The translations under genes and the position numbers were made by a program. A model generated the notes under the pieces. The model had not been told where the DNA came from and did not search any database. It saw only the letters and a program-made list of their open reading frames with translations. From assembly GCA_965242865.1 (NCBI GenBank), contig CBDETK010000013.1:3584001-3648000 (forward strand): a stretch of 64,000 nucleotides of DNA, read 5' to 3'. This document shows positions 43,527 through 64,000 of the stretch, piece after piece. Within the stretch, counting starts at the first letter, position 1. The number at the start of each line of letters is the position of its first letter. The DNA comes from Candidatus Latescibacterota bacterium. Its GTDB lineage: Bacteria; Latescibacterota; UBA2968; UBA8231.

Positions 43527-43530
43527 AGTC

Positions 43531-45083: not shown

Positions 45084-46095
45084 CGTTCTTGAGAGTGGTG
45101 CCGTCTGCCTCGGGTCAAAAGTAGTGTGTGATGGTTTCGCCGAAGGATACCCTTTCCGCGTCCAGACACATATCCACGATGACCACATGGGCGAGTTCGA
45201 CAAGAGCAAGGGCTTTCAGGATTTTCTGATGAGTCCAGAAACGTATGCACTTCTGGTAGAGGAACGCAATGCAGACCTTGAGTTCCGTGACAATATTCAC
45301 CGAGTAAATCGAGGCGACGAGCGTGTGCTCGACGACGGCTCGAAGCTATCCCTTCTTCCCTCCAACCACATGCTCGGCTCATGTCAAGTCGCACTGGAAT
45401 TACCCGACGGCCTCCGAGTCGGCTATTCAAGTGACTTCGGCTGGCCCCTCAATGAGGTTATTCAAGTCGACGAGCTCGTTGTGGACAGCACCTATGGGAG
45501 TCCCAGAAGCGTACGCCGCTACACCCAAGCGGAAGCGGAGGAGTGTCTGTTAAACCTCGTATGCGAGCGATTGCGACATGGTTCTGTGCATGTCAAAGCT
45601 CACAGAGGAACTATCGAGCGCGTGTTGCATGTACTCGGGGTCAACGTAGGGGTTCCGATTTTGGCCAGCGAACGACTCATTGGGGAAGTGAAGGTCTATC
45701 AGAATCACGGATCCGCTATCGGGGACCTATACGCACTCGACTCGGACGCAGGTCAATCTGCCATGAGGGAACGAGCCTATATTCGACTGTATTCAAAGGG
45801 AGATGGTTTAGGCAACGAACCAATCGGCGAAACGAGCGTCACATGCAGCGCGTACATGGCCAATGCCGATGATCCGCTGGTGACATATTCTGATCGGGCT
45901 TATAGGGTGGCGTTATCTAATCATGCGGACTTCAATGAAACGCTTGAGTACGTTAAGGCGACGAGGGCCAAGAAAATTGTCACGGATAACACACGAAACC
46001 ACGGAGTGGATTTGGCCACCGCCATCAATGAGCGTCTCCCGGGCGTACAGGCTCATCCATCAACGAATAACCCCGGACATAATCCATATCGTTGA
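45064..46095 (+). CDS. Metallo-beta-lactamase-fold (beta-CASP-like) nuclease
   Basis: THIHDDH, NHMLGS, YSSDF, VDSTYG, SNHADF. Confidence 0.8.
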   Translation: MPDPIVDVLESGAVCLGSKVVCDGFAEGYPFRVQTHIHDDHMGEFDKSKGFQDFLMSPETYALLVEERNADLEFRDNIHRVNRGDERVLDDGSKLSLLPSNHMLGSCQVALELPDGLRVGYSSDFGWPLNEVIQVDELVVDSTYGSPRSVRRYTQAEAEECLLNLVCERLRHGSVHVKAHRGTIERVLHVLGVNVGVPILASERLIGEVKVYQNHGSAIGDLYALDSDAGQSAMRERAYIRLYSKGDGLGNEPIGETSVTCSAYMANADDPLVTYSDRAYRVALSNHADFNETLEYVKATRAKKIVTDNTRNHGVDLATAINERLPGVQAHPSTNNPGHNPYR

Positions 46096-46177
46096 AGACC
46101 GAAGGTAATTAAGACGCGGACATGGCCTACAGCAATTCACATGGCCCGTCTATGTACCTTCCTCAAAGGAGCGATGC

Positions 46178-49126: not shown

Positions 49127-49274
49127 CGGATTTTCCTTTTCCGTGCTGGGTGCCGCTTCAAGGCTTCGCGCAGTTACCGTAGGGCGTGAGGCGTCTCGCC
49201 CCAGCGCACGGTGCCGATCAAGGAGCCGCGCTCCGACGGTCAAGTAGCGGCATCCTAGCGGGTGCCCGCCTTCT

Positions 49275-49905
49275 CTACTGCGGCCTTCATGGTGCGCTCT
49301 AAGCAACTCGTCGAGGGCCTTAGAGGTATCTCAACTGGGCCATCTCTAGCTGATTGGCCATGAAGGTTTTGTGCAGGGGTTTAGTAACTAATGGTGCTAG
49401 TATGTTGACCGTGGTCAAAGTAGTTCCTACGCTGAGGGTATCTCACCTTTCAGCCAAGGAGCGTCCTGATGACCACGGCCGAGTTTATAATAGCCCTGTT
49501 TTACCGAATCGACAATCAGATGCTTGCCGTGCCCAAACACCCGCAAGCGTCCTTATATCCGAGTGAGGTAGTCACTTTAGGGGTGTTGTATGCGCTCAAA
49601 GGCGGGGGTAAACGGGCATTTTACCACGGGCTGGTGCGGGACTGGCAGGCTTGGTTCCCGCGCCTGCCGTCGCGCACCCGCTTGTTCCGCCTCTTCGCCG
49701 CTCATGCCGATTGGACCGACCGCTTCCGAGCGGAGCCGACGACATTGGGAGTGGTCGACAGCTATGGCATTGAGTTGCGCCATCCGGTGCGTCAAGGCCG
49801 GGCGCAGCACGCCATTGGGAAGAAAGGGCTATCCAATCACCGTTGGATCAAAACACTAGCACCATTAGTTAGTACAGTGGTCGAAGCGGTGGAACCCAGT
49901 AGCAA
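49275..49905 (-). pseudogene. Relic 3' end of a paralog of the PQQ-ankyrin gene, interrupted by an IS
   Basis: With the IS removed it reads FATGFHRFDHCTKPLHKTFMANQLEMA, versus LAGGFSRYDRGSTPLHKTVMADQLAMA in the intact gene. Confidence 0.7.
49387..49869 (+). mobile_element. Internally deleted IS (IS982/IS5-like DDE) with 15-bp TIRs and 5-bp TSD
   Basis: TIRs ACTAATGGTGCTAGT / ACTAGCACCATTAGT. TAGTA at 49382-86 and 49870-74. Transposase N-terminus starts at 49469. Confidence 0.85.
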
Positions 49906-50097
49906 AGAGGGCTCGACGTCCAAAACTTCGATGCAGCCGGCCGAGGACATCTGCGGCCAGAACAGGCCTTTGAGGGATCCCTTTGGCTTGGATCATTTGG
50001 GGAGACTTTATACGGTTTAAACAGGTTACTCACTTTGATGATCGATGTTTCCCTCTCCTTTCTGGAAGTGGAAAATTTGAAAAGCAAGTAGCGCGGC

Positions 50098-52287
50098 TCA
50101 AAAGTTTGACATATAGCTAATTTTCGTCAGCAACACGCGCTCCACGGCCTCGTCCTTGGCCCGGTGTTCGTTATACGCGATGTAGAACCGGCTGTCGTTG
50201 ACGCCGAACCTGTAGCTCAAAAGGAGATTGAGATCGAGGGTGTCCTCGTGGAAGCTGCGCTGAAAAAAGCTGCGGACGAACACGTCGCGCTGGAAGAAGT
50301 ACGTCGTCCGCAGCAACAGGACGCGCTTGACTTCGTCCAACTCCCCGGAAGGGAAATACTCCCACACGGATTCGGTGCTAGAATCAAAAAAGAACCCCTT
50401 CCCCAAGTTGAATCGCAGTACGCCCGCTACGCGACGTATGTTGCCCAAATACTCGTCTTGAAAATCATATTGGTCTCGTAGTTGGCCGAAGACCTGGATC
50501 CGGTATCTGCGCCCGTTGCCGGTGTCAAAGCTAGCTTCAAACGAGTCGCCCTTGTACGTGTTTCGCTGCCACCGCATTTGCCAGTTCTTGTGATTGAACC
50601 ACGCGGACGAGTCATCCCATCGCCGCACAGACAGATCGACGTTGGTCCACTGCCATTCCCAGCCCTCTTCGTTGGTCCGCTGCTCGGCGACAAGCTCTTG
50701 GCCCAAGTAGATTTTTTGGATGCCGAGAAAATCGGGACGGAAGCTGTAGCTGCCATCAATGCCGAACTCTCGCTCGCCGACATCGGCGTCGTGCGGGATA
50801 AAGCCGATTTGATCGACGTTGAACCCCGGGTCAATCCAAGACGCCCAAGCCCGGAAGGGCCAGCGGTCGGAATTTCGCGTCAGGCGGCCGGTGTGCATTT
50901 TGTTTTGCTCGCCGACGTCCGCGCCAAAGCTCATGGCCGAACCGAGGAAGAGCTTGGCGTTTTCAGTCAGGCTCAACACGAGGTCGCTGCCGATGGCCTG
51001 CTGCCCTAGACTGTCATCCCTGCCGACCGCCAACGCGCCGATAGAGGAGTTGACCCCGAGGTCGCGCTTGAGGCGCAAGACGCCAAAATGCGGCTTGGTG
51101 CCATCCTCTTGGCGGTTGCGCGCCGCGATCAGGCCGAGGCTGTTCTTGCCGATCTTACCCGTTATTTTGCTGCCGACATCTGGGTCGCTAATCCGGCGAC
51201 TGTAAAAGAGATCCATCGGCGTAAAGAGCGTTTGCCCTTCGAGGAAGAAGGGCCGCTTCTCTCTAAGGTAGAGTTCAAACCGCGTCAGGTTGATTTGGCT
51301 TTCGTCGGCTTCGATGTGGGCAAAGTCTGGGTTGAGGGTGGCGTCGAGGGTGAGGTTGGAGGCGATGCCGTACTTCAGGTCGAGTCCCAAGTCGCCGGTC
51401 CACCCTTCGGTGGGCTGATCGCGCCGCTTTTCGTAACGCCCGGTCACATAAGGCCGGGTCTCTAAATGCAGCCCCTGTTTGATGCGGCCAATGCCGTGGA
51501 GGTGGCCGGCCTTGGACACCGTTAAGAGGTAGCGGACGTCTCTGGAGATAAACGCCCAGTTGCTGTTCTCGGTCCCGGTCCGGGCGATGCGTTGGACGTT
51601 GAGCCCCCACGTGTGCTGTTCGGATTCGGGGAAGCGCAGGGTCTTGAACGGGATGGCGAGCTCGGCACTCCAGCCGCGGTCGTGAAGGTGGGTCTCGGCC
51701 TGCCAGACGCCGTCCCAGTTCTGGTCGATGCCGCCCCAGCCGCCCGCCCCGTCGTCTTGGACGCGAAAATCGTTTTGGATGCCATAAGCGTTTATGTAGA
51801 AGCCGTAGGCGTTTTGGTGATCGTGATAGGTGTCTAGCACGAGGCCGACTAAGTCCAGCGGCGCGAACCGGCCATCTCGCTCCACCATGCGTCCTTCTAT
51901 GTTACTGGGTTCCTCGTCTAGCATGTCGAGGCCGATGTACAGGTAATCGGCGTCGTATAAGACGCGGATGAAGGTTTGGTTGGTGGCGGCGACGCCCTCA
52001 TGGGGGTCGATCAAAATGAAGCCGGTCGAAGGGGTGGCGATCTTCCAGCATTCGTCGTTTAGGGCACCATCTACTTTCGGTGGGATGTGCGTCTTGAAGG
52101 CGTCCATCTCTTTGTCGCTCTCGTGAGCCGGTGCGGACGGTGCGACGACGAGCATGGCCCAAGAGAGTAGAACCGCGAGGATGCGCTTGGTTGCATAAGC
52201 TGGGTTCGCTGTCATACTGGCCCTAATGCCGGGTGGCAGCCCTGAGCCATCCGTGGTGCTAAGCAGACATCCACTGTTCACAACCAT
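50098..52287 (-). CDS. CBM9-like + DUF5916 outer membrane protein
   Basis: VDGALND, WSAELAIPFKTLRF, LNPDFAHIEAD, EKRPFFLEG, terminal Phe. Confidence 0.85.
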   Translation of the reverse strand: MVVNSGCLLSTTDGSGLPPGIRASMTANPAYATKRILAVLLSWAMLVVAPSAPAHESDKEMDAFKTHIPPKVDGALNDECWKIATPSTGFILIDPHEGVAATNQTFIRVLYDADYLYIGLDMLDEEPSNIEGRMVERDGRFAPLDLVGLVLDTYHDHQNAYGFYINAYGIQNDFRVQDDGAGGWGGIDQNWDGVWQAETHLHDRGWSAELAIPFKTLRFPESEQHTWGLNVQRIARTGTENSNWAFISRDVRYLLTVSKAGHLHGIGRIKQGLHLETRPYVTGRYEKRRDQPTEGWTGDLGLDLKYGIASNLTLDATLNPDFAHIEADESQINLTRFELYLREKRPFFLEGQTLFTPMDLFYSRRISDPDVGSKITGKIGKNSLGLIAARNRQEDGTKPHFGVLRLKRDLGVNSSIGALAVGRDDSLGQQAIGSDLVLSLTENAKLFLGSAMSFGADVGEQNKMHTGRLTRNSDRWPFRAWASWIDPGFNVDQIGFIPHDADVGEREFGIDGSYSFRPDFLGIQKIYLGQELVAEQRTNEEGWEWQWTNVDLSVRRWDDSSAWFNHKNWQMRWQRNTYKGDSFEASFDTGNGRRYRIQVFGQLRDQYDFQDEYLGNIRRVAGVLRFNLGKGFFFDSSTESVWEYFPSGELDEVKRVLLLRTTYFFQRDVFVRSFFQRSFHEDTLDLNLLLSYRFGVNDSRFYIAYNEHRAKDEAVERVLLTKISYMSNF

Positions 52288-52382
52288 TGTGTTTCTCCTC
52301 TTACCTTATTGTCCACCACTGGGAAACCCGTACGAGCCGCCCAGATCAAGACCCTTGTCTCCGTGTAGGTACCTTCCCCGTT

Positions 52383-54206
52383 CTATTTATATCTATCGGC
52401 CTGCATTTTGAACATTGAAGCGTACTTCCCATCCGCCGCCATGAGTTCCGCGTGACTGCCGTCTTCGGCAATACTCCCTTTGTCCAGAACGATAATGCGA
52501 TCGGCCATTTTGACGGTGGAAAGCCGGTGGGATATGAGCAATGTTATCTTGCCCTGCGTCAGTCCTTTGAACCGAAGATACATAGAATACTCTGCCTCGG
52601 CATCTAAGGCAGATGTAGGTTCATCGAGAATGAGTAAACCCGCATCGCTTCTGACGAAGGCTCTCGCCATCGCAACTTTCTGCCATTCTCCTTCAGATAG
52701 GTCAACGCCGCCAGCAAACTGTCTGCCTAATAGGGTGGAGTAGCCGTTAGCTAGCTTGGCAATAAGAGGGGTAGCCATACCCTTCTCGGCAGCTTCCTTT
52801 ATTAAGGCCAGATCGTCCACATTTTCTACTTTTCCGATTCCTATATTCTCGCGTACCGTCAGACTGAAACGCGAGAAGTCTTGAAAAATAGCTGAAATAT
52901 TGTTCCTCCAAGAATCGACTTCGTATTGTCTCAAATCAACTCCATTGATAAGGATACATCCGCTCGTCGGATCGTAGAAGCGACACAACAATTTGACAAT
53001 AGTGCTCTTTCCGGCTCCGTTGTCGCCTATCAAGGCGACAGTCTCGCCGGCGTTTATGGTGAAAGATACCCCTCCTAAAATTTCAGTCGCGCTTTCGGGA
53101 TAAGAGAAGTGGACATTCCTAAATTCAATAGTGGCCAGAGGTTTTTGGTGCTCGTGTGCTTCCAGTTCAGCCTTGGTCAATACAGGTTTGAGATTCAAAA
53201 ATTTCATAAAATCTCTATACTGAAAAGCCACCTCGGATAATTGGCCGCTCATCAAGGTGAACATCCAAAGAGTTTCCTGAACGGTTGTAACTGCTGAAAA
53301 ATAAAGCGCGATATCACCCGGTGTTATATCTCCTCTGGTGACGAGGTAGGTCACATAGACATACATACTAGCTAGCCCAATTCCACTCAACAAGGCAAAT
53401 TTTGACGTTAAGTGAGCGTGATCTATTTTTACAACCTTTACTGTTTTTAGGATTTTGTCGAACCCCGTGCTATATCGGTTTATGAAATACTTTCCGATAT
53501 TTAATGTCTTTATTTCTTTGATGGTCTTGGGATCGACCATTATCTGGAAGTAATAGTCGAGCTTACGAGATTCCGGCACATTGCTCCACATGACATCGTA
53601 CGATTTTTTATAATGGCGAAGCTGGACAATCAGGTGAGGGATAGAAACAATCACTAGTACCAAAGGTATAACCCAGTCTATTTTGAATAAGAGAAACAAA
53701 ATAAAAATCAGTGTGACGAAATTGCGAATTGAGGCTGAGATGAGCCAGAGCATAGTTTCAGGTAGAAACGTATGACGTTGCAGATATTGAAGGCGGTCGT
53801 AGAATTTAGGGGTTTCAAAGTAAAAAAGTCCGGGTAAAGAGGCTGAAGTCTCCATAATCATTTGATCGACTTTTCTTTGCAAACGATCGCACAGAGTTGT
53901 TCTAATCGCTTCACTTGCCGGGTTTATAATGAAATAGGCTACTTGAGAAAAAATAAAAATACCTCCCCAAAAAATGTGGCGATACGTAGCACCATCTTCC
54001 TGCGCTTGGTTGGTATCTATAATCGAGTACGAGATTTGATCGACGACGTACTTGACGACTAAAGCCGATAGCCCCGGTAGGATGCTTGCTAAAGTAAGCA
54101 AAAGAATAAACGCGATTGTCAGAAAGGCATCAGCTTTCCATGCTAAGTAAATAATACTACCACTAGCTCTTACCAGTTGTTTCGTTTGACTGATTAGCCG
54201 GTTCAT
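52383..54206 (-). CDS. ABC exporter (lasso cluster)
   Basis: GDNGAGKST, LSEGEWQK, LDEPTSALD. Confidence 0.9.
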   Translation of the reverse strand: MNRLISQTKQLVRASGSIIYLAWKADAFLTIAFILLLTLASILPGLSALVVKYVVDQISYSIIDTNQAQEDGATYRHIFWGGIFIFSQVAYFIINPASEAIRTTLCDRLQRKVDQMIMETSASLPGLFYFETPKFYDRLQYLQRHTFLPETMLWLISASIRNFVTLIFILFLLFKIDWVIPLVLVIVSIPHLIVQLRHYKKSYDVMWSNVPESRKLDYYFQIMVDPKTIKEIKTLNIGKYFINRYSTGFDKILKTVKVVKIDHAHLTSKFALLSGIGLASMYVYVTYLVTRGDITPGDIALYFSAVTTVQETLWMFTLMSGQLSEVAFQYRDFMKFLNLKPVLTKAELEAHEHQKPLATIEFRNVHFSYPESATEILGGVSFTINAGETVALIGDNGAGKSTIVKLLCRFYDPTSGCILINGVDLRQYEVDSWRNNISAIFQDFSRFSLTVRENIGIGKVENVDDLALIKEAAEKGMATPLIAKLANGYSTLLGRQFAGGVDLSEGEWQKVAMARAFVRSDAGLLILDEPTSALDAEAEYSMYLRFKGLTQGKITLLISHRLSTVKMADRIIVLDKGSIAEDGSHAELMAADGKYASMFKMQADRYK

Positions 54207-56044
54207 CTTTTATATTGCTTCGCTTGCATATTATACAATTCTGAGTAAACTCCTCGGAGATTGATCAGGGCACTATGGTTGCCTTCTTCTACGATACGGC
54301 CCCCTTCCAAGACTATGATTCTATCCACTACATGGGCTGTGGATAGCCGGTGGGATATGATCAGCGTGACCTTGTTCTTCGTTAAATCGCGAAAGTGGAG
54401 ATACGTTTCGTATTCGCTTTGCACATCTAGTGCTGCCGTGGGTTCATCCAGAATCAAAATCCGTGCATCTCTAAAAAAAGCACGGGCGATAGCCAGTTTT
54501 TGCCATTGGCCAATGGACAATTCAGTGCCTCCCTCAAACTGTTTTCCGAGGAGGGTGGCAAATTTATTTGGAAGTTTTTTAATAAAATCAGCTCCTGCTT
54601 GGTCTGCGGCCTCTTTTATCTTCTTCTTTTTTATAAGGCTTAGATTCCCCAACCCTATGTTTTCTTCGACCGTCAATTGATATCGGTTATAGTCTTGAAA
54701 AACAATTCCTATATTCTTTCGCAGTTCATCGAGGTCAAAGTGGCTGATTGGAATCCCATTGATCAGAATCTGTCCGCTGTGCGGATCGTACAAACGGACC
54801 AAGAGTTTGACAATAGTGGTCTTGCCAGCACCGTTTCTTCCCACTAGGGAAACTGATTCGTTGAAACTGATCGAAAAGGATACCTGATTTAATATCAGAC
54901 GGTCTGTTCTAGGGTATCTAAAACTCACCTCCTTAAAGTCAACGCGCTCGATAAAATCTGGGAAGGATCTCATTTTTTGATTGGAAATTATTTTAATAGC
55001 AGGTTTGGCTTGCAGAAGTGCAAAAAGATGAGAGAGCAACCTACCTCTTTGGAAAAGCATAGCAACGCCGAACATGCACTCGTTTGAATACATCCACAAC
55101 TGTATCGCTGCCGTTAGATAAGCGACTAAAGATCCGACAGTTAGCAATCCTTCCGTGGCTTGATGGACTAGATGGCTATAGACTGCATATAGGCCCACGC
55201 TACCAAATACGGTACACAAGGACAGCCAGAGAAACTCTCTGAAACGGACATTCCACAGAGTCGCCGTTATCTTCTTGAAAGTCTCATCGTACCGCAATAA
55301 AAAGAAACGGTACAGTCCCAGTAATTTTACATCCTTAGCGACTTCATACGAAAGCATCTGATTGCGGTAATAATCGAGCTTCCTCGCTTCAGGAGCCTGA
55401 TGTTGTATAGCAATGCCGGCCCTATTGGTGAAGACGTAATTCACTAAAGCATACGGTATTATTGTTAAAAGAAAAAAACCAGCAAAAATAAAATCGAGGG
55501 TGCTTAAAAACATGGCAATAAATACTATTTGCAATACATATTTACATGTATCAAAACCAAATATAACCACATCCGCAACGTTGGGCTGAATCCTTTGAAT
55601 TTGCCGTAATTGGTCGTGAAATTTCGGGTTTTCAAAATGCACCAGATCGGGCAACCCATCAACCGCATCCATCGTCAAGGTCGCGATATAACCTTTCATT
55701 TTATCCGCTAAAATACTTTGAAGGGCTAACGCTATAGGGGAAGTAATCGCGGTTAAGACAATGATGCACACCAATGCTATAAGATATAATAAAATGGAGT
55801 CGATGTCTCTATTTTCCATCTTGGATATTTTGATAGCATCATCGATCACAAATTTCATCAAATAAAGTTTCAAGGCCGGTAATATACTTTGTATGAGGGT
55901 CAGAGTGGCCATGCCAGACAATAAAGACAGTGGTGCCACCTGCCATATCATTACCGCAGTTTTACCTATCGCCGTACTAGCACTTTTTAACTCTTTGATA
56001 GAAGGCCACCAAGATTCGAGTTCTATTTTTTTATTTTTGTCCAT
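54203..56044 (-). CDS. ABC exporter (lasso cluster)
   Basis: GRNGAGKTT, LSIGQWQK. ATG overlaps the methyltransferase stop (TAATG). Confidence 0.9.
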   Translation of the reverse strand: MDKNKKIELESWWPSIKELKSASTAIGKTAVMIWQVAPLSLLSGMATLTLIQSILPALKLYLMKFVIDDAIKISKMENRDIDSILLYLIALVCIIVLTAITSPIALALQSILADKMKGYIATLTMDAVDGLPDLVHFENPKFHDQLRQIQRIQPNVADVVIFGFDTCKYVLQIVFIAMFLSTLDFIFAGFFLLTIIPYALVNYVFTNRAGIAIQHQAPEARKLDYYRNQMLSYEVAKDVKLLGLYRFFLLRYDETFKKITATLWNVRFREFLWLSLCTVFGSVGLYAVYSHLVHQATEGLLTVGSLVAYLTAAIQLWMYSNECMFGVAMLFQRGRLLSHLFALLQAKPAIKIISNQKMRSFPDFIERVDFKEVSFRYPRTDRLILNQVSFSISFNESVSLVGRNGAGKTTIVKLLVRLYDPHSGQILINGIPISHFDLDELRKNIGIVFQDYNRYQLTVEENIGLGNLSLIKKKKIKEAADQAGADFIKKLPNKFATLLGKQFEGGTELSIGQWQKLAIARAFFRDARILILDEPTAALDVQSEYETYLHFRDLTKNKVTLIISHRLSTAHVVDRIIVLEGGRIVEEGNHSALINLRGVYSELYNMQAKQYKR

Positions 56045-57003
56045 TACCTTGGAATCCATTGCCAAAGGGTCGAGTGGTTGAACTTAGTTATCTGCTTAGT
56101 CCCCAATTCAAATCCTTTGTAGAGAACTTCGACATCCCACTTCCAAATACAACCAGATGCTCCCGGACTAGCAATTAACCGGACGTCAACTCTGTCGTTT
56201 TCGTTGATGGGTAATGGCTTATAAATGGGTAAAAATATATTGTCCCAAGATGCCGTCTTTGAAGGAGGTGCATTAGTAATATATATGTCGTCAAATAGAC
56301 ACGCTCTAAACCATCCGCAAAGCCCTTGAAGTGTACCTTCTCTTTTTATTTTAAATGAAAATTTTGGACTTGCAAATCCAGATTTCTTTTTAGTATGGAA
56401 ATTGATCTGATGCACTGTTTGAGGTTCACTTAAGAAGTAAGACGGTTTTGCTCTAGTGCTATACACTTCATTCAGAGCCATTTCTCTTACACAAGAAAAA
56501 TCTATTCCGTACACATCTATACTCCATATATCTACTTCGCCATATAGTTGGTCATCTTCGACAGGTACGAGTATCATTTGTAAGCTAGTTGGTACTATCT
56601 TGCCGTTCTTCTTTAGAAATCTGTCACGGGCATCTGATATTGTCTCCACCACATTTTGGCCGAGCCCAAATTTTGAAATTAATTCAGAGATTATGACATC
56701 TGCCTTTTGTGGAATTTCGACATTTTGAGATTCGTCATTAATAAAAGTGATCTGTCTTGTGAAATTATTGCATTTAGCAATCTTTTCCGCCACTTTTACC
56801 ATTGCTGTCCTTTCAATCGCGTAAACTCGCTTTGCGCCAGCTTGGCACGCGAAGAAGGCCAATAATCCACTGCCCGTCCCAATATCGACAACAACGTCTC
56901 CTGGATTAACGCTACGCATTATTGCTTCTCTGTATAGCTGGTTGCGTAATGTATCTCCGACTAATAGTCGATGAAACGAGACACTGCTGAAATCTTCTGA
57001 CAT
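56044..57003 (-). CDS. PRMT-like SAM-dependent methyltransferase
   Basis: DTLRNQLYREAI, VVDIGTGSGLL, DVIISE, ARDRFLK, GLCGWF, TASW. Confidence 0.8.
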   Translation of the reverse strand: MSEDFSSVSFHRLLVGDTLRNQLYREAIMRSVNPGDVVVDIGTGSGLLAFFACQAGAKRVYAIERTAMVKVAEKIAKCNNFTRQITFINDESQNVEIPQKADVIISELISKFGLGQNVVETISDARDRFLKKNGKIVPTSLQMILVPVEDDQLYGEVDIWSIDVYGIDFSCVREMALNEVYSTRAKPSYFLSEPQTVHQINFHTKKKSGFASPKFSFKIKREGTLQGLCGWFRACLFDDIYITNAPPSKTASWDNIFLPIYKPLPINENDRVDVRLIASPGASGCIWKWDVEVLYKGFELGTKQITKFNHSTLWQWIPR

Positions 57004-57176
57004 TTTGTACCCTCGTTAATCTTAATCTCTTAAAAATAACAAATCTGCCTCAAATCAGGCTATGCTTCTACCTCGATAGGAGAGTTTTGGATAATATGCT
57101 CTTTTCCCGCGAAAACGGGAATCCAGCCGGTATCGTTTAGACGCAAAGGACAACCATCAGAGTTTTCAGACAGCTT

Positions 57177-57288
57177 TGCTCTGTTGAAAAGGCTTATTTA
57201 TTAGCTTGGTTCGCTCCATTATTCTATAATAACATCGTAGGAGCAAGCTATACAAGAAGCCTCCTTAACTCTGCTTTTCAACAGAGCA
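57177..57288. mobile_element. MITE with 15-bp TIRs and 9-bp TSD
   Basis: TGCTCTGTTGAAAAG / CTTTTCAACAGAGCA, flanked on both sides by AGACAGCTT. Confidence 0.8.
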
Positions 57289-57297
57289 AGACAGCTT

Positions 57298-57464
57298 CTA
57301 AGAAGCGTTCTTAAATAGGTATTCGGGGTCTCCGGGGTCTCAATCGGCTCAGGCTATTTAGGGCCGCGGCCATCTTCGCCCTATGAAAAACGCTGGACGC
57401 CAAGGCCGCTCGACAGCCTCGCCAAGCACCAAGCGTCCAACAGGGATTTTAAAAAGGCTTCTTA
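57298..57464. mobile_element. Second MITE-like element
   Basis: Imperfect IRs CTAAGAAGCGTTCTTAAA / TTTAAAAAGGCTTCTTAG with a GC-rich interior. Confidence 0.55.
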
Positions 57465-58517
57465 GTTTTCTATTTTTAAAACTTCCAATTTTCTAGTTCC
57501 GCTCATAGCGGCCGATTTAACGCCAGCATAAATCTCACCTTGGCTACCTTCTACTAAGCGGTATATTTCTCCATATTCTCTGTCTTTCTCCAGTTCGATC
57601 CAAACCTCTCTACATTTCCCATTCTCTCTCATCAACAGGAGTTTTACTCCACCTTTTCTCTGGAAATATGGAAGAGATATCAACATATCGCTGTCCCTTT
57701 GTAAAATCGATTGAGTAAAGCTTTTTCCAGCTTTAAGGTACTCGTCATCTATCTTACCATAAGTTACAACTCTATCTTCTCGAGTAAACAAGTGTATTGT
57801 ACCTGTAGCATCCCGGATAATGCGGCTTCCATCTTTCATAATTCCGACACACCTGCCCTCAGACTCTGTAGGCAAGCGGGCAACTTCGATTTCTTTTTTT
57901 TCTTCCAAAGTATAGATGGTCCCTTCTCTTCCCAACCATAAAATCTTACTATTTTGCCACCAGATGCTGTAAGGAGGCTTTGTACAGCCCCATACCTCAG
58001 CAACGCATTCTGATTCATTTGTACTGACATCAACTCGGTAGACTTGGTCATGTGGATATGCTATAGCGTAGAAGATAGGCTCTCTTGGCACCTTCGCCAG
58101 AGATCTAATCCCTTGTCTTTCTGCTACAAATCCCAATCTTCGGGGTTTCCACTCAGGGGATGAGCAGCTAAAAATGTACCCACCTTTATACTCATAACTA
58201 GGATCTTGGGTGATATTGGGCGTGGGACCATGGTGGGTAGCTCCGTATAAAATGCCATCTTCTCGCAGCAGAGACATATACACTTTAGAGTGAAATCTGG
58301 GTTCTGAAGCCAGATCTAGATCCGATGCGAGCATGACTCTCTTACTAATGTGGGATAGCGTATTGATTGCATACATCTGACAAGCCCGTTGTTTAAAACC
58401 CCACGTCGACAATGGAACAAAAAGAGTCTCATCAATGCATTCCATGTCCCAGATAACGGCTAACTGATTTTCTTTATCCACATACGAAGCGATTATATTT
58501 GCCTTCCAACGTTCCAT
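57462..58517 (-). CDS. Hypothetical protein, probable beta-propeller
   Basis: Beta-rich segments (GILYGATH, GIRSLA, GEIYAG). In the operon. Confidence 0.6.
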   Translation of the reverse strand: MERWKANIIASYVDKENQLAVIWDMECIDETLFVPLSTWGFKQRACQMYAINTLSHISKRVMLASDLDLASEPRFHSKVYMSLLREDGILYGATHHGPTPNITQDPSYEYKGGYIFSCSSPEWKPRRLGFVAERQGIRSLAKVPREPIFYAIAYPHDQVYRVDVSTNESECVAEVWGCTKPPYSIWWQNSKILWLGREGTIYTLEEKKEIEVARLPTESEGRCVGIMKDGSRIIRDATGTIHLFTREDRVVTYGKIDDEYLKAGKSFTQSILQRDSDMLISLPYFQRKGGVKLLLMRENGKCREVWIELEKDREYGEIYRLVEGSQGEIYAGVKSAAMSGTRKLEVLKIEN

Positions 58518-58526
58518 TTTTTCCTC

Positions 58527-59795
58527 TTAAGATGGGTGTAGGTCACGTGGGGACTTTATTTTTACTTTTTCTTTTTTCTCTTTAGCACTCGCTACTTTAG
58601 CGGCGATTATCTGACCGATCTCTCCATTTCTTATAACTACCCCGTTTGCCGTTAATAGATGCACTCCATTCAACCATCTGTTCGGATTGCACAGTCGGCC
58701 TGATATGTCTTGATGAGGTATTCTTATCTCTCTTTTCCCAGGTACAATCTGACCCTCGGAATTTACGTCCAATACTAATATATCATCTTTGCTGTCGCTC
58801 TCAGAAGTTCCAATTACTCTTATCAGGGCATCCAAGCTATCGCCTTGGAAAAGAGCATTCATCTTTCTAAAAAAATAGCCCATCGGGACCTGTAACTGAT
58901 GTTCGAATATTCTTTCTGCTATAATTTCTATACCTTCTTCGCTACTCACTACCTGATCTAACAGGATGTTGAGATTAGCGAAACGCCCCAGTTCCAAGTC
59001 GCTACCTATGATAGAAGCCGTCAAGCTCTGCATGAACACGGCTGCTTCATTCGCCAAGAGGAGGAAAGAATCGATAAGGTCTGGAACCCGGAGAGGTAAG
59101 CCCAATAAATCTGTTGTTATGGCGCGGTCATTCGCGCTTTTCCAAAGACCCATGGGTTGGGGGCCATTATCTTTATACGGCCTAATCGTCATTAGTGGTC
59201 TCGAGCCATCAGTCGAAAGAGACTGCGCCATTCGCTGAATAAAAGGATAAAGTCTATCAATAACTGGATCGGCTAAATCACTATATGGATCGTCGAAACT
59301 TTTAAATAGGTTCAAGCGCGGTAAAGAGAAAAGCTTGTATTCTGTGGCTAGTATATCTTTAACCTCGTCTACTGCTTTTTCGTTGACTAAGATTTCTACC
59401 GAACGGGAGCGCCCAAAGGAATCCTCGCCATAAATCCTTCGTCCCAACCCCATAGTCGGCCATATGGTAAAATCAACTCCTCGTTTCAGCAACATGCTGC
59501 CAAACTGGCGTAGCAGCGCGAGTTGATATCTCTCCAGATTGGCCAGTTCCGCACGAAAAAACAGACACTCTGGATCTATCGGATTCAAAGTTTCCTCCGG
59601 GGGCCGCATAGTGTACTGGAACCGGTATCTCAGCATATGGGGCAACACACGCTGTTGCAGCAGCACAGATAGTAGCGGCCTATTTTCGCTCTGGAGTATA
59701 TCGGGCGGTTTGAGGGAGTCTATATAAGCCAGATCGAATTTGGGTTTAGCCAATTCAACCATTATCTCCCATACATCTTCTTTCAATTCTTCCAT
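58527..59795 (-). CDS. Divergent nucleotidyltransferase-family protein
   Basis: IYGEDSFGRSRSVEILV resembles the R..D.D.LV motif. Lasso-cluster context. Confidence 0.5.
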   Translation of the reverse strand: MEELKEDVWEIMVELAKPKFDLAYIDSLKPPDILQSENRPLLSVLLQQRVLPHMLRYRFQYTMRPPEETLNPIDPECLFFRAELANLERYQLALLRQFGSMLLKRGVDFTIWPTMGLGRRIYGEDSFGRSRSVEILVNEKAVDEVKDILATEYKLFSLPRLNLFKSFDDPYSDLADPVIDRLYPFIQRMAQSLSTDGSRPLMTIRPYKDNGPQPMGLWKSANDRAITTDLLGLPLRVPDLIDSFLLLANEAAVFMQSLTASIIGSDLELGRFANLNILLDQVVSSEEGIEIIAERIFEHQLQVPMGYFFRKMNALFQGDSLDALIRVIGTSESDSKDDILVLDVNSEGQIVPGKREIRIPHQDISGRLCNPNRWLNGVHLLTANGVVIRNGEIGQIIAAKVASAKEKKEKVKIKSPRDLHPS

Positions 59796-59810
59796 TTCCA
59801 GTCACTTCTA

Positions 59811-60464
59811 TCAATTGTGGTTCTGTTTTTTGTCTTGAATTAGTTTCGCTCCGACCTCCAAAAGTGCTTGGGGGCCATTTCGTCGCAATCCTTTAATGTA
59901 CATCTCAGGCTTATTAGCTCGATATTGGACTTCTTCAGCGAAGAAATAGGCAATGTCGGTGTTGGCCTTGATCCACCTTTCTTTTTGAACTAGATTTTGG
60001 ATAGCTCTTCGGATAGCGAGTGGGTCAGTCCAGTTTGCTTTGAAAACCACCTTACCCTCTTTGTCAATTATCCAACTCATATTGGGTCGGGACCCGTAAA
60101 GCTTGTGAGCTTTTTCATCAAACCTATCGACCCATATATCGCGCTTTACACCATATAATCTCTTGAATGCCCATGCGTGATCTATTTTCTGTTCAATTGA
60201 GCGGTGTTCAGGCCAGTATTCTCCTGGATGTGCCTCGGATGTATATACAAAAACTAGTTCAAAACCAAATTCTGAAAACTCTACATTTAAATATTCCATC
60301 GCTGGAATGACATCGACACAGTAGGGACAAGTAATACTTCCAAATTCGAGGACCACATGTTGTCGGCCGATATAGTCCGATAAGTTGGCTTCTCCCTTTC
60401 CCAGATTAATAGCGCAGAAATCTGGAGCTTGCTCAAGCAGTTTTATCCTGTCTGTGAAACTCAT
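59811..60464 (-). CDS. Deiodinase-like/AhpC-TSA thioredoxin-fold protein
   Basis: VLEFGSITCPYC, VYTSEAHP, YGSRPN. Confidence 0.8.
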   Translation of the reverse strand: MSFTDRIKLLEQAPDFCAINLGKGEANLSDYIGRQHVVLEFGSITCPYCVDVIPAMEYLNVEFSEFGFELVFVYTSEAHPGEYWPEHRSIEQKIDHAWAFKRLYGVKRDIWVDRFDEKAHKLYGSRPNMSWIIDKEGKVVFKANWTDPLAIRRAIQNLVQKERWIKANTDIAYFFAEEVQYRANKPEMYIKGLRRNGPQALLEVGAKLIQDKKQNHN

Positions 60465-60511
60465 AACAGCGATCTTAAGTTTAACTGTAGGTCTACTAGT
60501 CTTACCGAAAA

Positions 60512-60552
60512 GTGCAATGAGCCTTAATTTTCATCATTAAGGCTCATTGCAC
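60512..60552. terminator. Hairpin after the lasso precursor genes
   Basis: GTGCAATGAGCCTTAAT / ATTAAGGCTCATTGCAC perfect 17-bp stem. Confidence 0.75.
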
Positions 60553-60610
60553 AGACTCAGGAGGGGTGTCTCAAACCTTAACCATCAGGTTATTTGGTTT
60601 GGATTGAGGG

Positions 60611-60754
60611 TTAGCAATTGACTTTCCGAGTACAATTGGCATCATAGGCCTGGCTACCGCCAGCAGTGACTAGCCCCACGGCATTGCCGAACCTAACCAC
60701 GACGGGAATGACATATTCCTTTTTCGCGGTCTTTGCCTGTTCTTCCTTACTCAT
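60611..60754 (-). CDS. Lasso peptide precursor A2 (47 aa; not in ORF track)
   Basis: RBS AAGGAGG then MSKEEQAKTAKKEYVIPVVVRFGNAVGLVT-AGGSQAYDANCTRKVNC. Confidence 0.85.
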   Translation of the reverse strand: MSKEEQAKTAKKEYVIPVVVRFGNAVGLVTAGGSQAYDANCTRKVNC

Positions 60755-60792
60755 GATTTATCACCTCCTTCCTTCTAGGTTTCATCTTGTGT

Positions 60793-60954
60793 CTAACCGC
60801 AGTGTTGACGGGTCCCTCCTGTTTCGAACTGGCAGTTGCCATTACCAGCGGCGAGCGTGGCAACATTGCCGAAATTGACTAGTACAGGGGACTGATAGTT
60901 CTTCTTTTTTGGAGGAACCTGTCCCTGCTCGTGAGGTTGGTGCTTCTTGTGCAT
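60793..60954 (-). CDS. Lasso peptide precursor A1 (53 aa)
   Basis: RBS AAGGAG; YQSPVLVNFG leader motif; core GNGNCQFETGGTRQHCG. Confidence 0.88.
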   Translation of the reverse strand: MHKKHQPHEQGQVPPKKKNYQSPVLVNFGNVATLAAGNGNCQFETGGTRQHCG

Positions 60955-61012
60955 TTTCAGTCTCCTTTCACTCCAGTGGCTAAAGTTGTATTGACACCGA
61001 CTCCTGAGTCGA

Positions 61013-62974
61013 TTAGATGCCATATTTTCTATGCATTCTATCGAGCCATAGCTCGATAGAAAGAGCATTTAGAAGATTCCCCAGATGTGTCCAATTACCT
61101 TGCATCCAATGAGATAGACTTCGTGTAAATTTATCGTGATCTAAATAGCCTCTCCTAACCGTTTCAAATCCTCTCGTCTGGCCCTTCTCTATGAGACGGG
61201 GCAATTCTTGCTGTAAGCCTCTAAGAGCTGGACGACCGAAATCAGGGCCTCTTCGACGCGTCCTCACTTCTTCAGGTAGTATATCTTTTAGTGCCTCCCG
61301 CATAATTACTTTTCTATGACGTCTACCTGAAGGCACTTCAATATAGGTCTTCAAGCCCATAGGTACACCTAGCATATATTCAAGAAGACGCTTATCATAG
61401 TATGGCATACGTATTTCGATAGATTGAGGCGACGCGACATATTCATCCATCCAACAGTATCCTGTGTCTTCATATAACGACCGATACTCAATCCGCATAG
61501 ACTGAACTGGGAAATGACGATCTGGAAGTAATTCTCGGAGTCTTTTACGGGCACCCATTTTTTTGGCAAAATCGGGATTCACCCAGTCTACCATAACAGG
61601 GCCTCCAAAGGAATCGAAATAATGCCAGTATTCAGGCTTGACGTGTAAAATAGGACTCAAGATAGTTTGCCAAAACTCGGGAACGAGGGGTTTAATAGCA
61701 AAATTTATTAAAGCATGTAGGTACGTCTGGTTCCTTGCATATGACCACATTTTAAGCTCACGCGTTAGCTCTTTGAACCTTCCCTTACGTAATAGATCGG
61801 CTAGATATAAGGGATTACCTTGTAGAATGGCATCTCCACCATCCCCCCTAAGCCAAACTCGTGCGCCAAATCTATATACAGCCGAAACAGTACGTAATAC
61901 CTGATCATAAGCTGAGAATCCACCACTCGGCTCATCTGTAAGGGGAGCATGTTGAAGCTGATTCTGAAAAAGGAAAAAGTCGTCCGACGGAATTTCAATG
62001 GTATTTTTGATTTGGTATTTATCTACTACTTGCCGTTGAAAATACCGCTCATCTGACTCAGGAAAGTCATCAAAGACCATTGAGCAGGTTGTAAAGCCGT
62101 TAGAAGGAATCTCGCCTTGATTATATATCTCTTGTGCCATAGACACAATCGAGGACGAGTCCAAACCACCGCTGAGGTCTGAGACCACGGGTTTCATACA
62201 ACGCAACCGGCACCTAACCGCCTCGCGAAAAAGTTCCCGTAGCCGTTCTTGATAGTCTTCGGTTTTCTGATAGCGAACCTCAGAAACTTCACGCGGGTCC
62301 CAATAAGCAATAGGGTCACTTACCCCATGCCGATCTACTTTTATATAATGAGCCGGTGGTAATCTCAATATATCCTCAAATACAGTAGTTGGAGTAGATA
62401 GCGGTCCAACTGCACAATATAACAGATAGTCAAGGATATAGTTATCATTTATTTTCATCGGAAAGGATGGTTCCTGAAAAATCTGTCTAATCGAAGACCC
62501 CCATATCAAAGTATTCTTGAACTTAGTATAATAAAACGGACGGATCCCCATAAAATCACGTGCACAGAGCAGTGTTTCCGTTTTCGCATCCCAGATGGAA
62601 AATGCGAAATCCCCAACTATTTTTTTTAAGCATTCAATATTCCATTTTTCGTAAGACAGCAAAATTAACTCTGCATCTGTCGGGGAAAATTGAGGGGTTT
62701 TATCTTTTTTTAATAGAGAGATCAGCTCATCCCGATTATCTACGCGCCCATCGCAGACTATCCAGATATTGGAACCCCTAATCGACAAGGGCTGGATCTC
62801 CCTGTAGGATTCTTCGGTCGTATGAAATTGGCAATGAGCCATACCTATATGGTATAGTACAGTCTGATTTACCCGTTCAGCACCCCGATGAGAAATTTGC
62901 ATAATCATATTTTTCAGCATATTCTCATCAATCGGTTTTTTGTCTAGGTTTAATATCCCCGCAATACCAGCCAT
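61013..62974 (-). CDS. Lasso cyclase (asparagine synthetase-like, C protein)
   Basis: N-terminus MAGIAG lacks the AsnB Cys; DLSGGLDSS, GDGGD. Adjacent to B1/B2 and the precursors. Confidence 0.9.
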   Translation of the reverse strand: MAGIAGILNLDKKPIDENMLKNMIMQISHRGAERVNQTVLYHIGMAHCQFHTTEESYREIQPLSIRGSNIWIVCDGRVDNRDELISLLKKDKTPQFSPTDAELILLSYEKWNIECLKKIVGDFAFSIWDAKTETLLCARDFMGIRPFYYTKFKNTLIWGSSIRQIFQEPSFPMKINDNYILDYLLYCAVGPLSTPTTVFEDILRLPPAHYIKVDRHGVSDPIAYWDPREVSEVRYQKTEDYQERLRELFREAVRCRLRCMKPVVSDLSGGLDSSSIVSMAQEIYNQGEIPSNGFTTCSMVFDDFPESDERYFQRQVVDKYQIKNTIEIPSDDFFLFQNQLQHAPLTDEPSGGFSAYDQVLRTVSAVYRFGARVWLRGDGGDAILQGNPLYLADLLRKGRFKELTRELKMWSYARNQTYLHALINFAIKPLVPEFWQTILSPILHVKPEYWHYFDSFGGPVMVDWVNPDFAKKMGARKRLRELLPDRHFPVQSMRIEYRSLYEDTGYCWMDEYVASPQSIEIRMPYYDKRLLEYMLGVPMGLKTYIEVPSGRRHRKVIMREALKDILPEEVRTRRRGPDFGRPALRGLQQELPRLIEKGQTRGFETVRRGYLDHDKFTRSLSHWMQGNWTHLGNLLNALSIELWLDRMHRKYGI

Positions 62975-63022
62975 CTTATTTTCCTTAATCGGTCAATCGG
63001 TCGTTTTATCCGTAATCGTGGA

Positions 63023-63463
63023 TCAGCAAACAGATATTACCGAATACCTATCTCTAAGATCCACAGAATCATTTACTACTTTGCCATAGCACTCAACCCA
63101 AGCATGAAAAACTAGCGGAGGGAACTTCGTATATCCGATACACAACTCAGCCGGAAACCTATACTTTCTAAGCAAGGAACAGATAACCAAAGACCTTTCA
63201 AGGCACTTTACGCGCCTTACATAAATTCGTGCGGCCTGCTTACCAATTTCTGAGATAAGGTCTACCAAATCAACTTCAGAAACCATTTGGTTTTCGTTCC
63301 TTGGCTTCGTAATAACGTGCTGCTTCACTAGGCTCTGGGCACATTTTCCAAAGCCGAACAGTCGCAGATATATATCGGTTTTTACATAGAGCGTGTACGC
63401 CTGTAAAAAAATGTAGAAATACTTTAGCCGCTTTTCAGGGGCCATTAAATTGGTGTCAGTCAT
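63023..63463 (-). CDS. Lasso leader peptidase B2
   Basis: KCLERSL...FHAWVE transglutaminase-like motifs. Confidence 0.92.
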   Translation of the reverse strand: MTDTNLMAPEKRLKYFYIFLQAYTLYVKTDIYLRLFGFGKCAQSLVKQHVITKPRNENQMVSEVDLVDLISEIGKQAARIYVRRVKCLERSLVICSLLRKYRFPAELCIGYTKFPPLVFHAWVECYGKVVNDSVDLRDRYSVISVC

Positions 63464-63746
63464 TTCGTATATCTAACACTCCGTTTTTATTTAACTCAGT
63501 TATCAGAGCTAATATATCTCCCCGTAACTGATCTTCGCCGACATCGTATTCCTCCATTAAATCTCTCAATATCTGCTCTATGGCTATACCGTCTTTTTTA
63601 TGATTCGCCAGTTCCCAGAAACTTTTACCGACAGCTACCAACCCATAGAACTCGCCGCTTTCAAAATTCAGGATCACCACATTTTCGCCATCTATTGTCG
63701 ATTCAACATGGTCTGGAATCGAAATCTTAGTTGAGGGATCTATCAT
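63456..63746 (-). CDS. Lasso RRE protein B1 (PqqD family)
   Basis: VILNFESGEFYGL, FWEL, EYDV...DILALITEL..GVL. Confidence 0.92.
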   Translation of the reverse strand: MIDPSTKISIPDHVESTIDGENVVILNFESGEFYGLVAVGKSFWELANHKKDGIAIEQILRDLMEEYDVGEDQLRGDILALITELNKNGVLDIRND

Positions 63747-64000
63747 TATTTCTTTTTTTAAAGTAACGTTAAGTAAGGTTAGGTATAGTGTGAAGGCTCC
63801 TGAGCATAAATGGCTTGGGTTCTCACCCCGAACTTTGCTGTTATACCGCTATAGGAGATAGAGATATCGATCGTATGTTTTGGACTTGGGACTTGGATAT
63901 ATTTAGTATAGTATTAGATATTTGTCAAGCGAAAAATGGACTTGTCTCAAGTATTACCGGCAGGCCAACCCCGACGGGAGCGGCAATGTCCGTCTTGACG

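Follow-up and report, generated by a model that had tools for sequence, protein, structure and literature searches.

The window analyzed here is a 64,000-nucleotide stretch of contig CBDETK010000013.1 (positions 3,584,001 to 3,648,000) from a Candidatus Latescibacterota bacterium, and it carries toward its right end a gene cluster for lasso peptides, which are among the peptides made on ribosomes and modified after translation (RiPPs). All long open reading frames (ORFs) from 52383 to 63746 lie on the minus strand, in the order B1, B2, C, A1, A2, a hairpin, a thioredoxin-fold protein, a protein of 422 amino acids (aa), a protein of 351 aa, a methyltransferase, and two ABC transporters (Table 1). 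An earlier reading of the bare DNA sequence, referred to below as the original prediction, had described this inventory and same-strand order, and both were borne out gene for gene by the ORF listing, several of the genes also by Pfam and NCBIfam.

Table 1. Features of the lasso peptide island (positions in the window; RRE, RiPP recognition element; SAM, S-adenosylmethionine; PRMT, protein arginine methyltransferase; TMD-NBD, transmembrane domain-nucleotide-binding domain; nt, nucleotides; dG, folding free energy)
Feature	Position	Strand	Evidence
B1, PqqD-like RRE, 96 aa	63456..63746	-	PF05402, E 1.7e-13, 51 bits (cut-off 23.4)
B2, lasso leader peptidase, transglutaminase-like Cys protease, 146 aa	63023..63463	-	NF033537, 78.2 bits (cut-off 33); PF13471, E 4e-21
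C, Asn-synthetase-like lasso macrolactam synthetase, 653 aa	61013..62974	-	PF00733, E 2e-42; GATase_7
A1 precursor, 53 aa	60793..60954	-	Shine-Dalgarno-like GAAAGGAGA upstream
A2 precursor, 47 aa	60611..60754	-	GGAAGGAGGTG upstream (strong Shine-Dalgarno)
Terminator-like hairpin directly 3' of A2	60512..60552	-	17-pair stem, 7-nt loop, then TTTTCGG
Deiodinase-family thioredoxin-fold protein, 217 aa, FGSITCPYC	59811..60464	-	PF00578, E 2e-10; PF00837, E 4e-10; PF08534
422-aa near-orphan; possible degenerate PF14907-like nucleotidyltransferase fold	58527..59795	-	Language-model features, synteny
351-aa near-orphan; possibly all-beta propeller	57462..58517	-	Feature neighbors, low-confidence model
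Second hairpin, then T-run, just 3' of the 351-aa gene, in the 458-nt gap	57391..57442	-	dG -32.4 kcal/mol, z -2.8; 5/200 shuffles fold as well
Copy of a dispersed host repeat, ~72 bp, inserted in the 458-nt gap before the methyltransferase gene	57104..57176	.	22 own-genome matches
PRMT-fold SAM-dependent methyltransferase, 319 aa, no fused RRE	56044..57003	-	PF22528, PF17286
ABC half-transporter 1 (ABC1), TMD-NBD, 620 aa	54203..56065	-	PF00005, E 2e-32
ABC half-transporter 2 (ABC2), 607 aa	52383..54206	-	PF00005, E 1e-30

The genes by which a lasso cluster is recognized, i.e., a B1 RRE, a B2 peptidase, a C synthetase, and precursors with the appropriate features, were all found. The scores of B1, B2, and C are above or near what their family models require, and the three genes form an operon of overlapping or tightly spaced genes together with two precursor ORFs preceded by Shine-Dalgarno sequences. 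The lasso PqqD models of NCBIfam matched B1 below their cut-offs, and the top NCBIfam model for C was the cyanobacterial-type lasso cyclase NF033535, at 404 bits under its cut-off of 525. The C translation begins with MAG..., lacking the Cys2 of glutamine-hydrolyzing AsnB, and contains the SGGLDSS motif.

Both precursors have leaders of the form K-x-Y-x-x-P-x-(L/V)-x-x-F-G, which align with the KxYxxPxLxx(Y/F)G...L motif of 11 precursor-like ORFs located beside other lasso cyclases. A1 matched the NF033528 lasso_cyano model with an E value of 1.7e-4 and 21.5 bits, below the cut-off of 33. No Pfam or NCBIfam family model matched A2; by tblastn, a precursor-like ORF in another lasso locus (L077) was 38% identical to it over 44 aa. 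The predicted A1 core is 17 aa long, starts with Gly1, has Glu8 as the ring acceptor, contains Cys5 and Cys16 as well as a T-R-Q motif in the tail, and ends with Gly. The A2 core was predicted to be 16 aa long with a Gly1-Asp7 ring by the Thr(-2) rule, or 17 aa long with an Ala1-Asp8 ring by alignment; its tail holds both Cys residues and a T-R-K motif, and the C-terminal residue is Cys. Exactly two Cys are present in each predicted core (one in the ring and one in the tail of A1, both in the tail of A2), and in both cores a Cys occupies the last or penultimate position. The T-R-(Q/K) motif is common to both tails, and its Arg is the sole tail side chain, Cys aside, that the two cores have in common. 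The calculated monoisotopic neutral masses of the A1 core are 1764.706 (linear), 1746.695 (lasso), and 1744.679 (lasso with a disulfide); those of the A2 core are 1685.725, 1667.714, and 1665.699 at 16 aa and 1756.762, 1738.752, and 1736.736 at 17 aa, and each methyl group would add 14.016.

The thioredoxin-fold protein encoded downstream of the precursors scored 39.7 bits against PF00837 (T4_deiodinase; cut-off, 27) and was also above the cut-offs of AhpC-TSA and Redoxin, while its score against NCBIfam model NF038285 was 56.6 bits, below the cut-off of 250. Its closest solved relatives were deiodinases 2 and 3, followed by ResA-type thiol-disulfide oxidoreductases. FGSITCPYC aligns with FGSATCPPF of deiodinase 2 and SEAHPGEYW with DEAHPSDGW, and deiodinase 3 is similar. 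CPYC is located at the deiodinase/thioredoxin active site, with its second Cys at the spacing of thioredoxins and glutaredoxins. The name deiodinase-like oxidoreductase given in the original prediction is therefore upheld at the family level by the PF00837 score and by the aligned active-site and EAHP..W motifs. No N-terminal hydrophobic signal was visible in the translation, and a search of 5.8 billion clusters returned only two other relatives. Because both cores carry a Cys pair, we assigned the protein to disulfides, as a candidate catalyst of their formation or isomerization.

Redox proteins also occur in known lasso clusters, SviF being the closest precedent. Class I clusters (sviceucin, MS-271, and aborycin, with SviE/SviF) encode SviF-type CXXC thioredoxin proteins and resemble the cluster described here in their split B1/B2, C, Cys-containing cores, ABC exporters, and a CXXC thioredoxin-type protein proposed to act on disulfides (PMC9266682, available text). 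In contrast to these class I clusters, each core here has the Cys for one disulfide and not two, and the redox protein is deiodinase/peroxiredoxin-like (PF00837), a distinction from SviF that is drawn by family only. There is also no DoxX partner, and the methyltransferase and two near-orphan proteins are extra. The Cys pattern of A1, with one ring Cys and one tail Cys, is that of class III (BI-32169 and 9401-LP1), and that of A2, with two tail Cys, is that of class IV (LP2006, pandonodin, and felipeptins), following the classes in the available text of PMC13352647. Unlike the present cluster, in which the disulfides are predicted, class III and IV clusters are reported with A-D genes only or with a flavin oxidoreductase (PMC9266682). 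The combination of both Cys patterns and a thioredoxin-fold gene in one cluster is not described in the available text of PMC9266682 or PMC13352647, and the mechanism of lasso disulfide formation is stated as unknown in the latter, a 2026 review.

The methyltransferase scored 52.2 bits against PF22528 (PRMT_C; cut-off, 27) and 55.2 bits against PF17286 (PRMT5_C; cut-off, 30.3). It matched the structures of PRMT6, CARM1, PRMT3, and PRMT1 over ~260-280 residues with E values of 2e-31 to 1e-29, and it has the two-domain architecture and SAM motifs of these eukaryotic type I enzymes. The SAM motif VVDIGTGSG and the post-I acid (Glu of AIE) align with PRMT6 and CARM1 and are invariant in the alignment; in addition to motif I and this acid, the first Glu of the double-E loop (E107) and the PRMT barrel are kept. 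At an E value of ≤1e-3 there were 336 relatives; leaving aside the enzyme itself, identity reached 50-51% in the closest. In 60 relatives of the host, which included 30 of the same genus, only three weak partial matches (E ~1e-6) were obtained, and JGI metagenome contigs scanned with a clade-specific alignment contained no relative above 42% identity. The two ABC half-transporters encoded next to the methyltransferase are paralogues with 35% identity over their full length, and the NCBIfam matches of ABC1 were to MsbA- and bacteriocin-exporter-type models, all below cut-off.

The AT-rich island noted in the original prediction was confirmed. It extends over ~52,300-64,000 with a GC content of 0.384-0.478 (500-bp windows, 52500-63999), compared to 0.55-0.64 in the left flank (46000-52499) and 0.59-0.67 in the right flank (beyond window position 64000). 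The GC content at third codon positions (GC3) was 0.36-0.47 in all nine enzyme genes and 0.73-0.76 in two flanking native genes. Because the same foreign GC3 runs throughout, the nine enzyme genes arrived as one unit, and the cluster, judged on composition, is foreign to the host and horizontally acquired. The outermost genes of the island are B1 (first) and ABC2 (last), and the 14 kb past the window end, read from the organism's own genome, are native high-GC DNA. The cluster is complete and self-contained, at ~11.6 kb.

We interpret this locus as a lasso cluster for two Cys-containing peptides that would be tailored by the redox protein and the PRMT-fold enzyme and exported by the ABC pair, and we put the probability of this interpretation at about 60%. 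By analogy with established lasso biosynthesis, B1 would bind the YxxPxL-type leaders of A1 and A2, B2 would cleave them off, and C would use ATP to activate Glu8 (A1) or Asp7/8 (A2), closing the ring onto the new N terminus around the tail. The cytoplasmic CPYC protein would then form or proofread one disulfide per peptide, predicted as Cys5-Cys16 (ring to tail) in A1 and, inside the A2 tail, as Cys10-Cys16 or Cys11-Cys17. The PRMT-fold enzyme would use SAM to methylate the peptide once or twice, with the Arg of T-R-(Q/K) as the likeliest site. The 422-aa and 351-aa proteins may be accessory or scaffold proteins, and ABC1 and ABC2 would pair as a heterodimer for product export and protection of the producer.

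Several points weigh against this interpretation. The products are known here from genes alone: gene identities, order, composition, and precursor features were observed, and from these we infer every modification step. Position -2 of A1 is Ala and not the usual Thr, and the cleavage site of A2 is ambiguous. Disulfide formation was reported not to require SviF-type proteins (PMC9266682); the redox protein may accordingly be nonessential or act otherwise. The 422-aa and 351-aa proteins are tied to the peptide by position and composition only. In lasso loci of other phyla, 11 precursor-like ORFs were identified next to PRMT-fold genes; Arg is missing from the cores of several, and six (in loci L008, L028, L037, L054, L058, and L060) end with Cys-Leu. 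The PRMT-fold enzymes of these loci belong to other clades. Finally, compared to PRMT6 and CARM1, the second double-E Glu of the window enzyme is replaced by Q116 and the His of the Thr-His-Trp (THW) loop by S252, giving Ala-Ser-Trp.

In canonical PRMTs, the second double-E Glu and the THW His hold or activate the guanidinium group. Because Q116 and S252 replace these guanidinium-binding residues, Arg may not be the acceptor, and arginine as the methyl acceptor is plausible but insecure. Thus, the designation PRMT-like in the original prediction stands for the family and fold (PRMT_C and PRMT5_C above cut-off; PRMT6 and CARM1 at E ~1e-31), but arginine methylation is insecure with two residues substituted. 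The window enzyme further differs from eukaryotic type I PRMTs in its short N terminus and its bacterial RiPP context. Among 85 aligned sequences, the Glu/Gln/Ser combination was found only in the window enzyme and four of its five nearest relatives, and the fifth has Glu/Gln/Ala. Both double-E Glu residues were kept in 55 of the 62 non-lasso rows outside this six-member Glu/Gln clade. The sole species-representative genome with the same Glu/Gln/Ser variant is an Arenicellales metagenome-assembled genome (L063, 9992-10981), in which the neighbors are housekeeping genes (AlgH-like, RuvX, and pyrimidine genes) and transposases, and no RiPP genes were detected.

The genomic context of related enzymes was examined in 80 loci from species-representative genomes that were retrieved with the methyltransferase alignment. 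The B1, B2, or C protein of the window was matched by tblastn in 18 of these loci, from many phyla. C was matched in 16, where the PRMT-fold gene mostly lies directly adjoining the cyclase gene or the precursor. A PF14907 nucleotidyltransferase was present in 16 of the 80 loci and an HPr-kinase-like match in 13, with examples confirmed by Pfam. In the JGI metagenome loci, many of which are on short contigs, a lasso cyclase adjoins the PRMT-fold gene in 3 of 80. A quick maximum-likelihood tree with Shimodaira-Hasegawa-like approximate likelihood ratio test (SH-aLRT) support placed 12 lasso-linked enzymes in one clade (SH-aLRT 99) and three in another. The window enzyme was placed in a separate clade of 11 rows (SH-aLRT 99), together with enzymes bearing a fused RRE-like C-terminal domain whose clusters contain PqqD, radical SAM, HPr-kinase-like, PF14907, and ABC-2 genes. 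It is sister to a group with the canonical Glu-Glu-His, and the double-E and THW loops are strongly altered in the main lasso-linked clade. Since PRMT-fold enzymes are found beside lasso genes (18/80 loci) as well as beside RRE and radical SAM genes, peptide tailoring is a recurrent context for them. By their gene neighborhoods, they appear to be recurrent RiPP tailoring enzymes that lasso clusters acquired on more than one occasion, possibly with differing acceptors.

Among named genomes, the window enzyme has its nearest relatives in the methyltransferases of RiPP-like clusters without a lasso cyclase (L002, 133-5520; L003, 6354-12742; also L084-L086, L090, and L118). The gene order in the L002/L003 type is PqqD, one or two radical SAM proteins, an HPr-kinase-like protein, a PRMT-fold methyltransferase with a C-terminal RRE-like extension, a small gene of no assigned family, a PF14907 nucleotidyltransferase, and an ABC-2 permease. 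Two small ORFs in L003 (5009-5185 and 6246-6353), one of them directly upstream of the PqqD gene, have a common ...VTPMGP.GLESRAFAGFSAVMLLLAIAL... sequence and may be precursors or membrane peptides of that cluster.

These comparisons bear on the acceptor of the methyl group. The methyltransferase could tailor the lasso peptides at a site other than arginine, i.e., a Cys thiol, the terminal carboxylate, or a Lys or His near the C terminus, which we consider rather unlikely. The Q116 and S252 substitutions are common to the small clade of the window enzyme, the loops of the main lasso-linked clade are even more altered, and the precursors of that clade are often without Arg, 6 of 11 ending with Cys-Leu; both cores in the window also have Cys at or next to the C terminus, and C-terminal O-methylation by an unrelated enzyme is known in lasso peptides (PMC9266682). 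However, the enzyme retains the first Glu of the loop and the PRMT pocket as a whole, and its sister group has the canonical triad. The Cys residues would not be free for methylation if both were in a disulfide, and the C-terminal residues of the two cores differ (Gly in A1 and Cys in A2). Within the favored interpretation, the Arg of T-R-(Q/K) is the likeliest site.

Gene spacing raises a further alternative. B1 and B2 overlap by 8 nt and ABC1 and ABC2 by 4 nt, the stop codon of the methyltransferase gene overlaps the ABC1 start, and gaps of 15 and 9 nt separate the redox, 422-aa, and 351-aa genes 3' of the A2 hairpin. The exception to this tight spacing is the 458-nt gap before the methyltransferase gene, which contains no convincing ORF. 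The methyltransferase, being translationally coupled to the ABC genes, could belong with them to an export/immunity module in which it methylates a host target protein or inactivates the peptide in the producer. The gap with its hairpin does set these three genes apart, and the window enzyme is without the RRE domain that is fused in many relatives; self-resistance through Lys acetylation of the lasso peptide is documented for triculamin and lariocidin (PMC13352647). Nevertheless, we regard an immunity role as very unlikely: PRMT-fold genes occur with a lasso cyclase in 16 of 80 loci, mostly adjoining the cyclase or precursor, which fits tailoring; B1 is available as an RRE in trans; and no target is known.

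The 422-aa and 351-aa proteins are considered real genes because they are long open frames in AT-rich DNA and are packed into the operon. The 422-aa protein had no Pfam or NCBIfam match even at an E value of 10, a six-frame PF14907 search of the genome did not report its gene, a word-indexed search returned only the protein itself, and it was not found in the 60 host relatives. Among its Atlas feature matches, 28 of 30 were PF14907 clusters (score, 0.95). Run against a profile built on 12 PF14907 proteins that the related loci encode, hhalign gave a probability of 5.4% and an E value of 0.0072, colinear over 202 columns. If this weak alignment is right, S-V-E stands at the invariant D-x-D and P-T at K-G, so that the protein, if homologous to PF14907, is probably not a conventional nucleotidyltransferase. 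A single-sequence structure model was unusable (predicted local distance difference test [pLDDT] score, 35). The divergent nucleotidyltransferase of the original prediction is thus a lead: language-model features and synteny elsewhere speak for it, but the missing family match, the hhalign probability of 5%, and the absent D-x-D do not.

For the 351-aa protein, no family match was obtained (WDR55 at E 0.12 only), and an exhaustive search of 1.84 billion representatives gave five matches including itself, the others being weak and of repeat type (cadherin-repeat, Reg_prop, and similar). In the Atlas, its neighbors at 0.94-0.96 were SMP-30, Reg_prop, SSL_N, and WD40-type clusters, recognition being lower than usual, and a low-confidence model (pLDDT 42) had 24 strands and no long helix. 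The earlier suggestion of a propeller likewise remains a lead only, in that the feature neighbors and the 24-strand model point to such a fold but recognition and model confidence are low. We rejected the possibility of a diverged HPr-kinase-like protein in the case of the 351-aa protein: tblastn of the island with two HPr-kinase-like proteins from related loci gave only a 23-aa match (E 6.8), and the 351-aa model is all-beta.

PF14907-type genes recall the paeninodin/pseudomycoidin-type clusters, which combine an HPr-kinase-like protein (PsmK) with a nucleotidyltransferase (PsmN). The island possibly has a PF14907-like gene downstream of the precursors, and in other lasso loci PRMT-fold genes sit with HPr-kinase-like and PF14907 genes. 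In contrast to paeninodin-type clusters, however, the 422-aa protein fails the PF14907 model and is without D-x-D, the cores have no C-terminal Ser (Gly in A1, Cys in A2), and there is no kinase-like gene. No kinase was found in the island or beside it, including upstream of B1; the Hpr_kinase Pfam match was absent from every island protein, and the DNA past the window end is native, all in agreement with the original statement that no kinase is present.

The redox, 422-aa, and 351-aa proteins could be passengers of the island, with disulfides forming spontaneously or through host factors and with at most methylation as tailoring. These three near-orphans have no demonstrated link to RiPPs, the 422-aa protein is without the invariant D-x-D of the family that it faintly resembles, and the cluster oxidoreductases are dispensable in sviceucin and MS-271, while several class III/IV clusters have none (PMC9266682). 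On the other hand, the three genes lie 15 and 9 nt apart directly 3' of the precursors, on the same strand and with the same foreign composition. Their frames are intact, each is partly covered by contigs of a diverged island copy, and in 16 of 80 loci the PRMT-fold gene is found together with a PF14907 nucleotidyltransferase. We consider it distinctly unlikely that the three are passengers.

The diverged copy was found in a sequencing run from another study, labeled sponge metagenome, which covers most of the island with 2.6-6% differences and whose contigs bridge the same left junction. Indels lie outside ORFs in all rows of this run among the 12 shown (4 further indel rows exist). Because of this placement of the indels shown, the diverged copy suggests that the reading frames of the island are under selection. 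Coverage by read runs was 16 of 30 bins for run X10 and patchy for run X5. Contig depth spikes, which the ~72-bp repeat causes, and loose ends were seen at 57104-57176 in the sequencing runs; of the 22 matches of this repeat in the genome, 13 are 59-73 nt long with 79-93% identity. The presence of this host repeat in the 458-nt gap means that residence of the island has lasted long enough for the repeat to colonize it. The lasso B2 family was present in 3 of the 60 host relatives. No att-like flanking repeats were found, the longest word common to the flanks being 10 nt, and Rfam gave sub-threshold chance matches only.

The hairpin 3' of A2 has a dG of -31.7 kcal/mol (z, -7.7), and none of 200 shuffles folded as well. 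Terminator-like sites in the region were not more numerous than in shuffles (11 versus 10.3 ± 3.5), and the A2 hairpin alone stands out. Together with the hairpin 3' of the 351-aa gene, it suggests three transcription units.

Upstream of the lasso island, the window contains defense-island-like genes at 40330-44355, namely a GmrSD-type restriction endonuclease (598 aa), an SNF2-family helicase (471 aa), and a ParB_N-domain protein (274 aa). The GC content at 44-46 kb of the window is ~0.51-0.54. A 1,042-aa protein at 46178-49306 consists of a PQQ-dependent dehydrogenase propeller (E 7e-181) and C-terminal ankyrin repeats.

SAM-dependent methyltransferases of other types are known from lasso clusters. 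The lassomycin-like cluster encodes StspM, which methylates the peptide by C-terminal O-methylation (PMC9266682), and the lihuanodin and cellulonodin-2 clusters encode a homologue of protein isoaspartyl methyltransferase (PIMT) associated with aspartimide (PMC13352647). Unlike StspM and PIMT, the enzyme here has a PRMT fold with a barrel, and the Asp6 conserved in the PIMT group is absent from both cores. The lasso modifications in the available text of the June 2026 review include C-terminal methylation, hydroxylation, epimerization, a second isopeptide bond, citrulline, aromatic cross-links, Trp chlorination and prenylation, glycosylation, phosphorylation, Lys acetylation, Tyr acylation, and aspartimide, with dehydroalanine appearing among its references; neither Arg methylation nor PRMT-type methylation is named there (PMC13352647). 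No link between lasso peptides and PRMT-type enzymes was found in the open-access literature searched. Similarly, the genome-mining literature on lasso tailoring methyltransferases mentions no PRMT-type enzyme in the titles and abstracts examined, which are part of the matching papers. The tailoring set of a PRMT-fold methyltransferase, a deiodinase-like redox protein, and two near-orphans is not described for lasso peptides in the literature searched. The new post-translational chemistry proposed in the original prediction is thus plausible and absent from that literature, but the modification itself is deduced from genes alone.

As a tentative extension, which we hold to be possible though somewhat less probable than its opposite, the PRMT-fold enzymes would constitute an uncharacterized family of RiPP tailoring methyltransferases, recruited repeatedly to lasso peptides (in at least two clades) and to radical-SAM/RRE peptides. 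The window enzyme with its Gln/Ser pocket would then install a methylation new to lasso peptides, either N-methylation of the Arg side chain in the plug region or a non-Arg methylation, and lasso disulfides would have a dedicated catalyst in the cytoplasm, the CPYC protein. If true, the role of the CPYC protein bears on the step of lasso biosynthesis that is called unknown in the available text of PMC13352647.

Lasso peptides combine a stable scaffold with antibiotic and receptor-binding activities, and the range that can be made grows with each further tailoring enzyme. Since the cluster is small (11.6 kb) and complete, it can be reconstituted. With two differently patterned two-Cys cores and one CXXC protein, this compact cluster is a handy test case for lasso disulfide formation.

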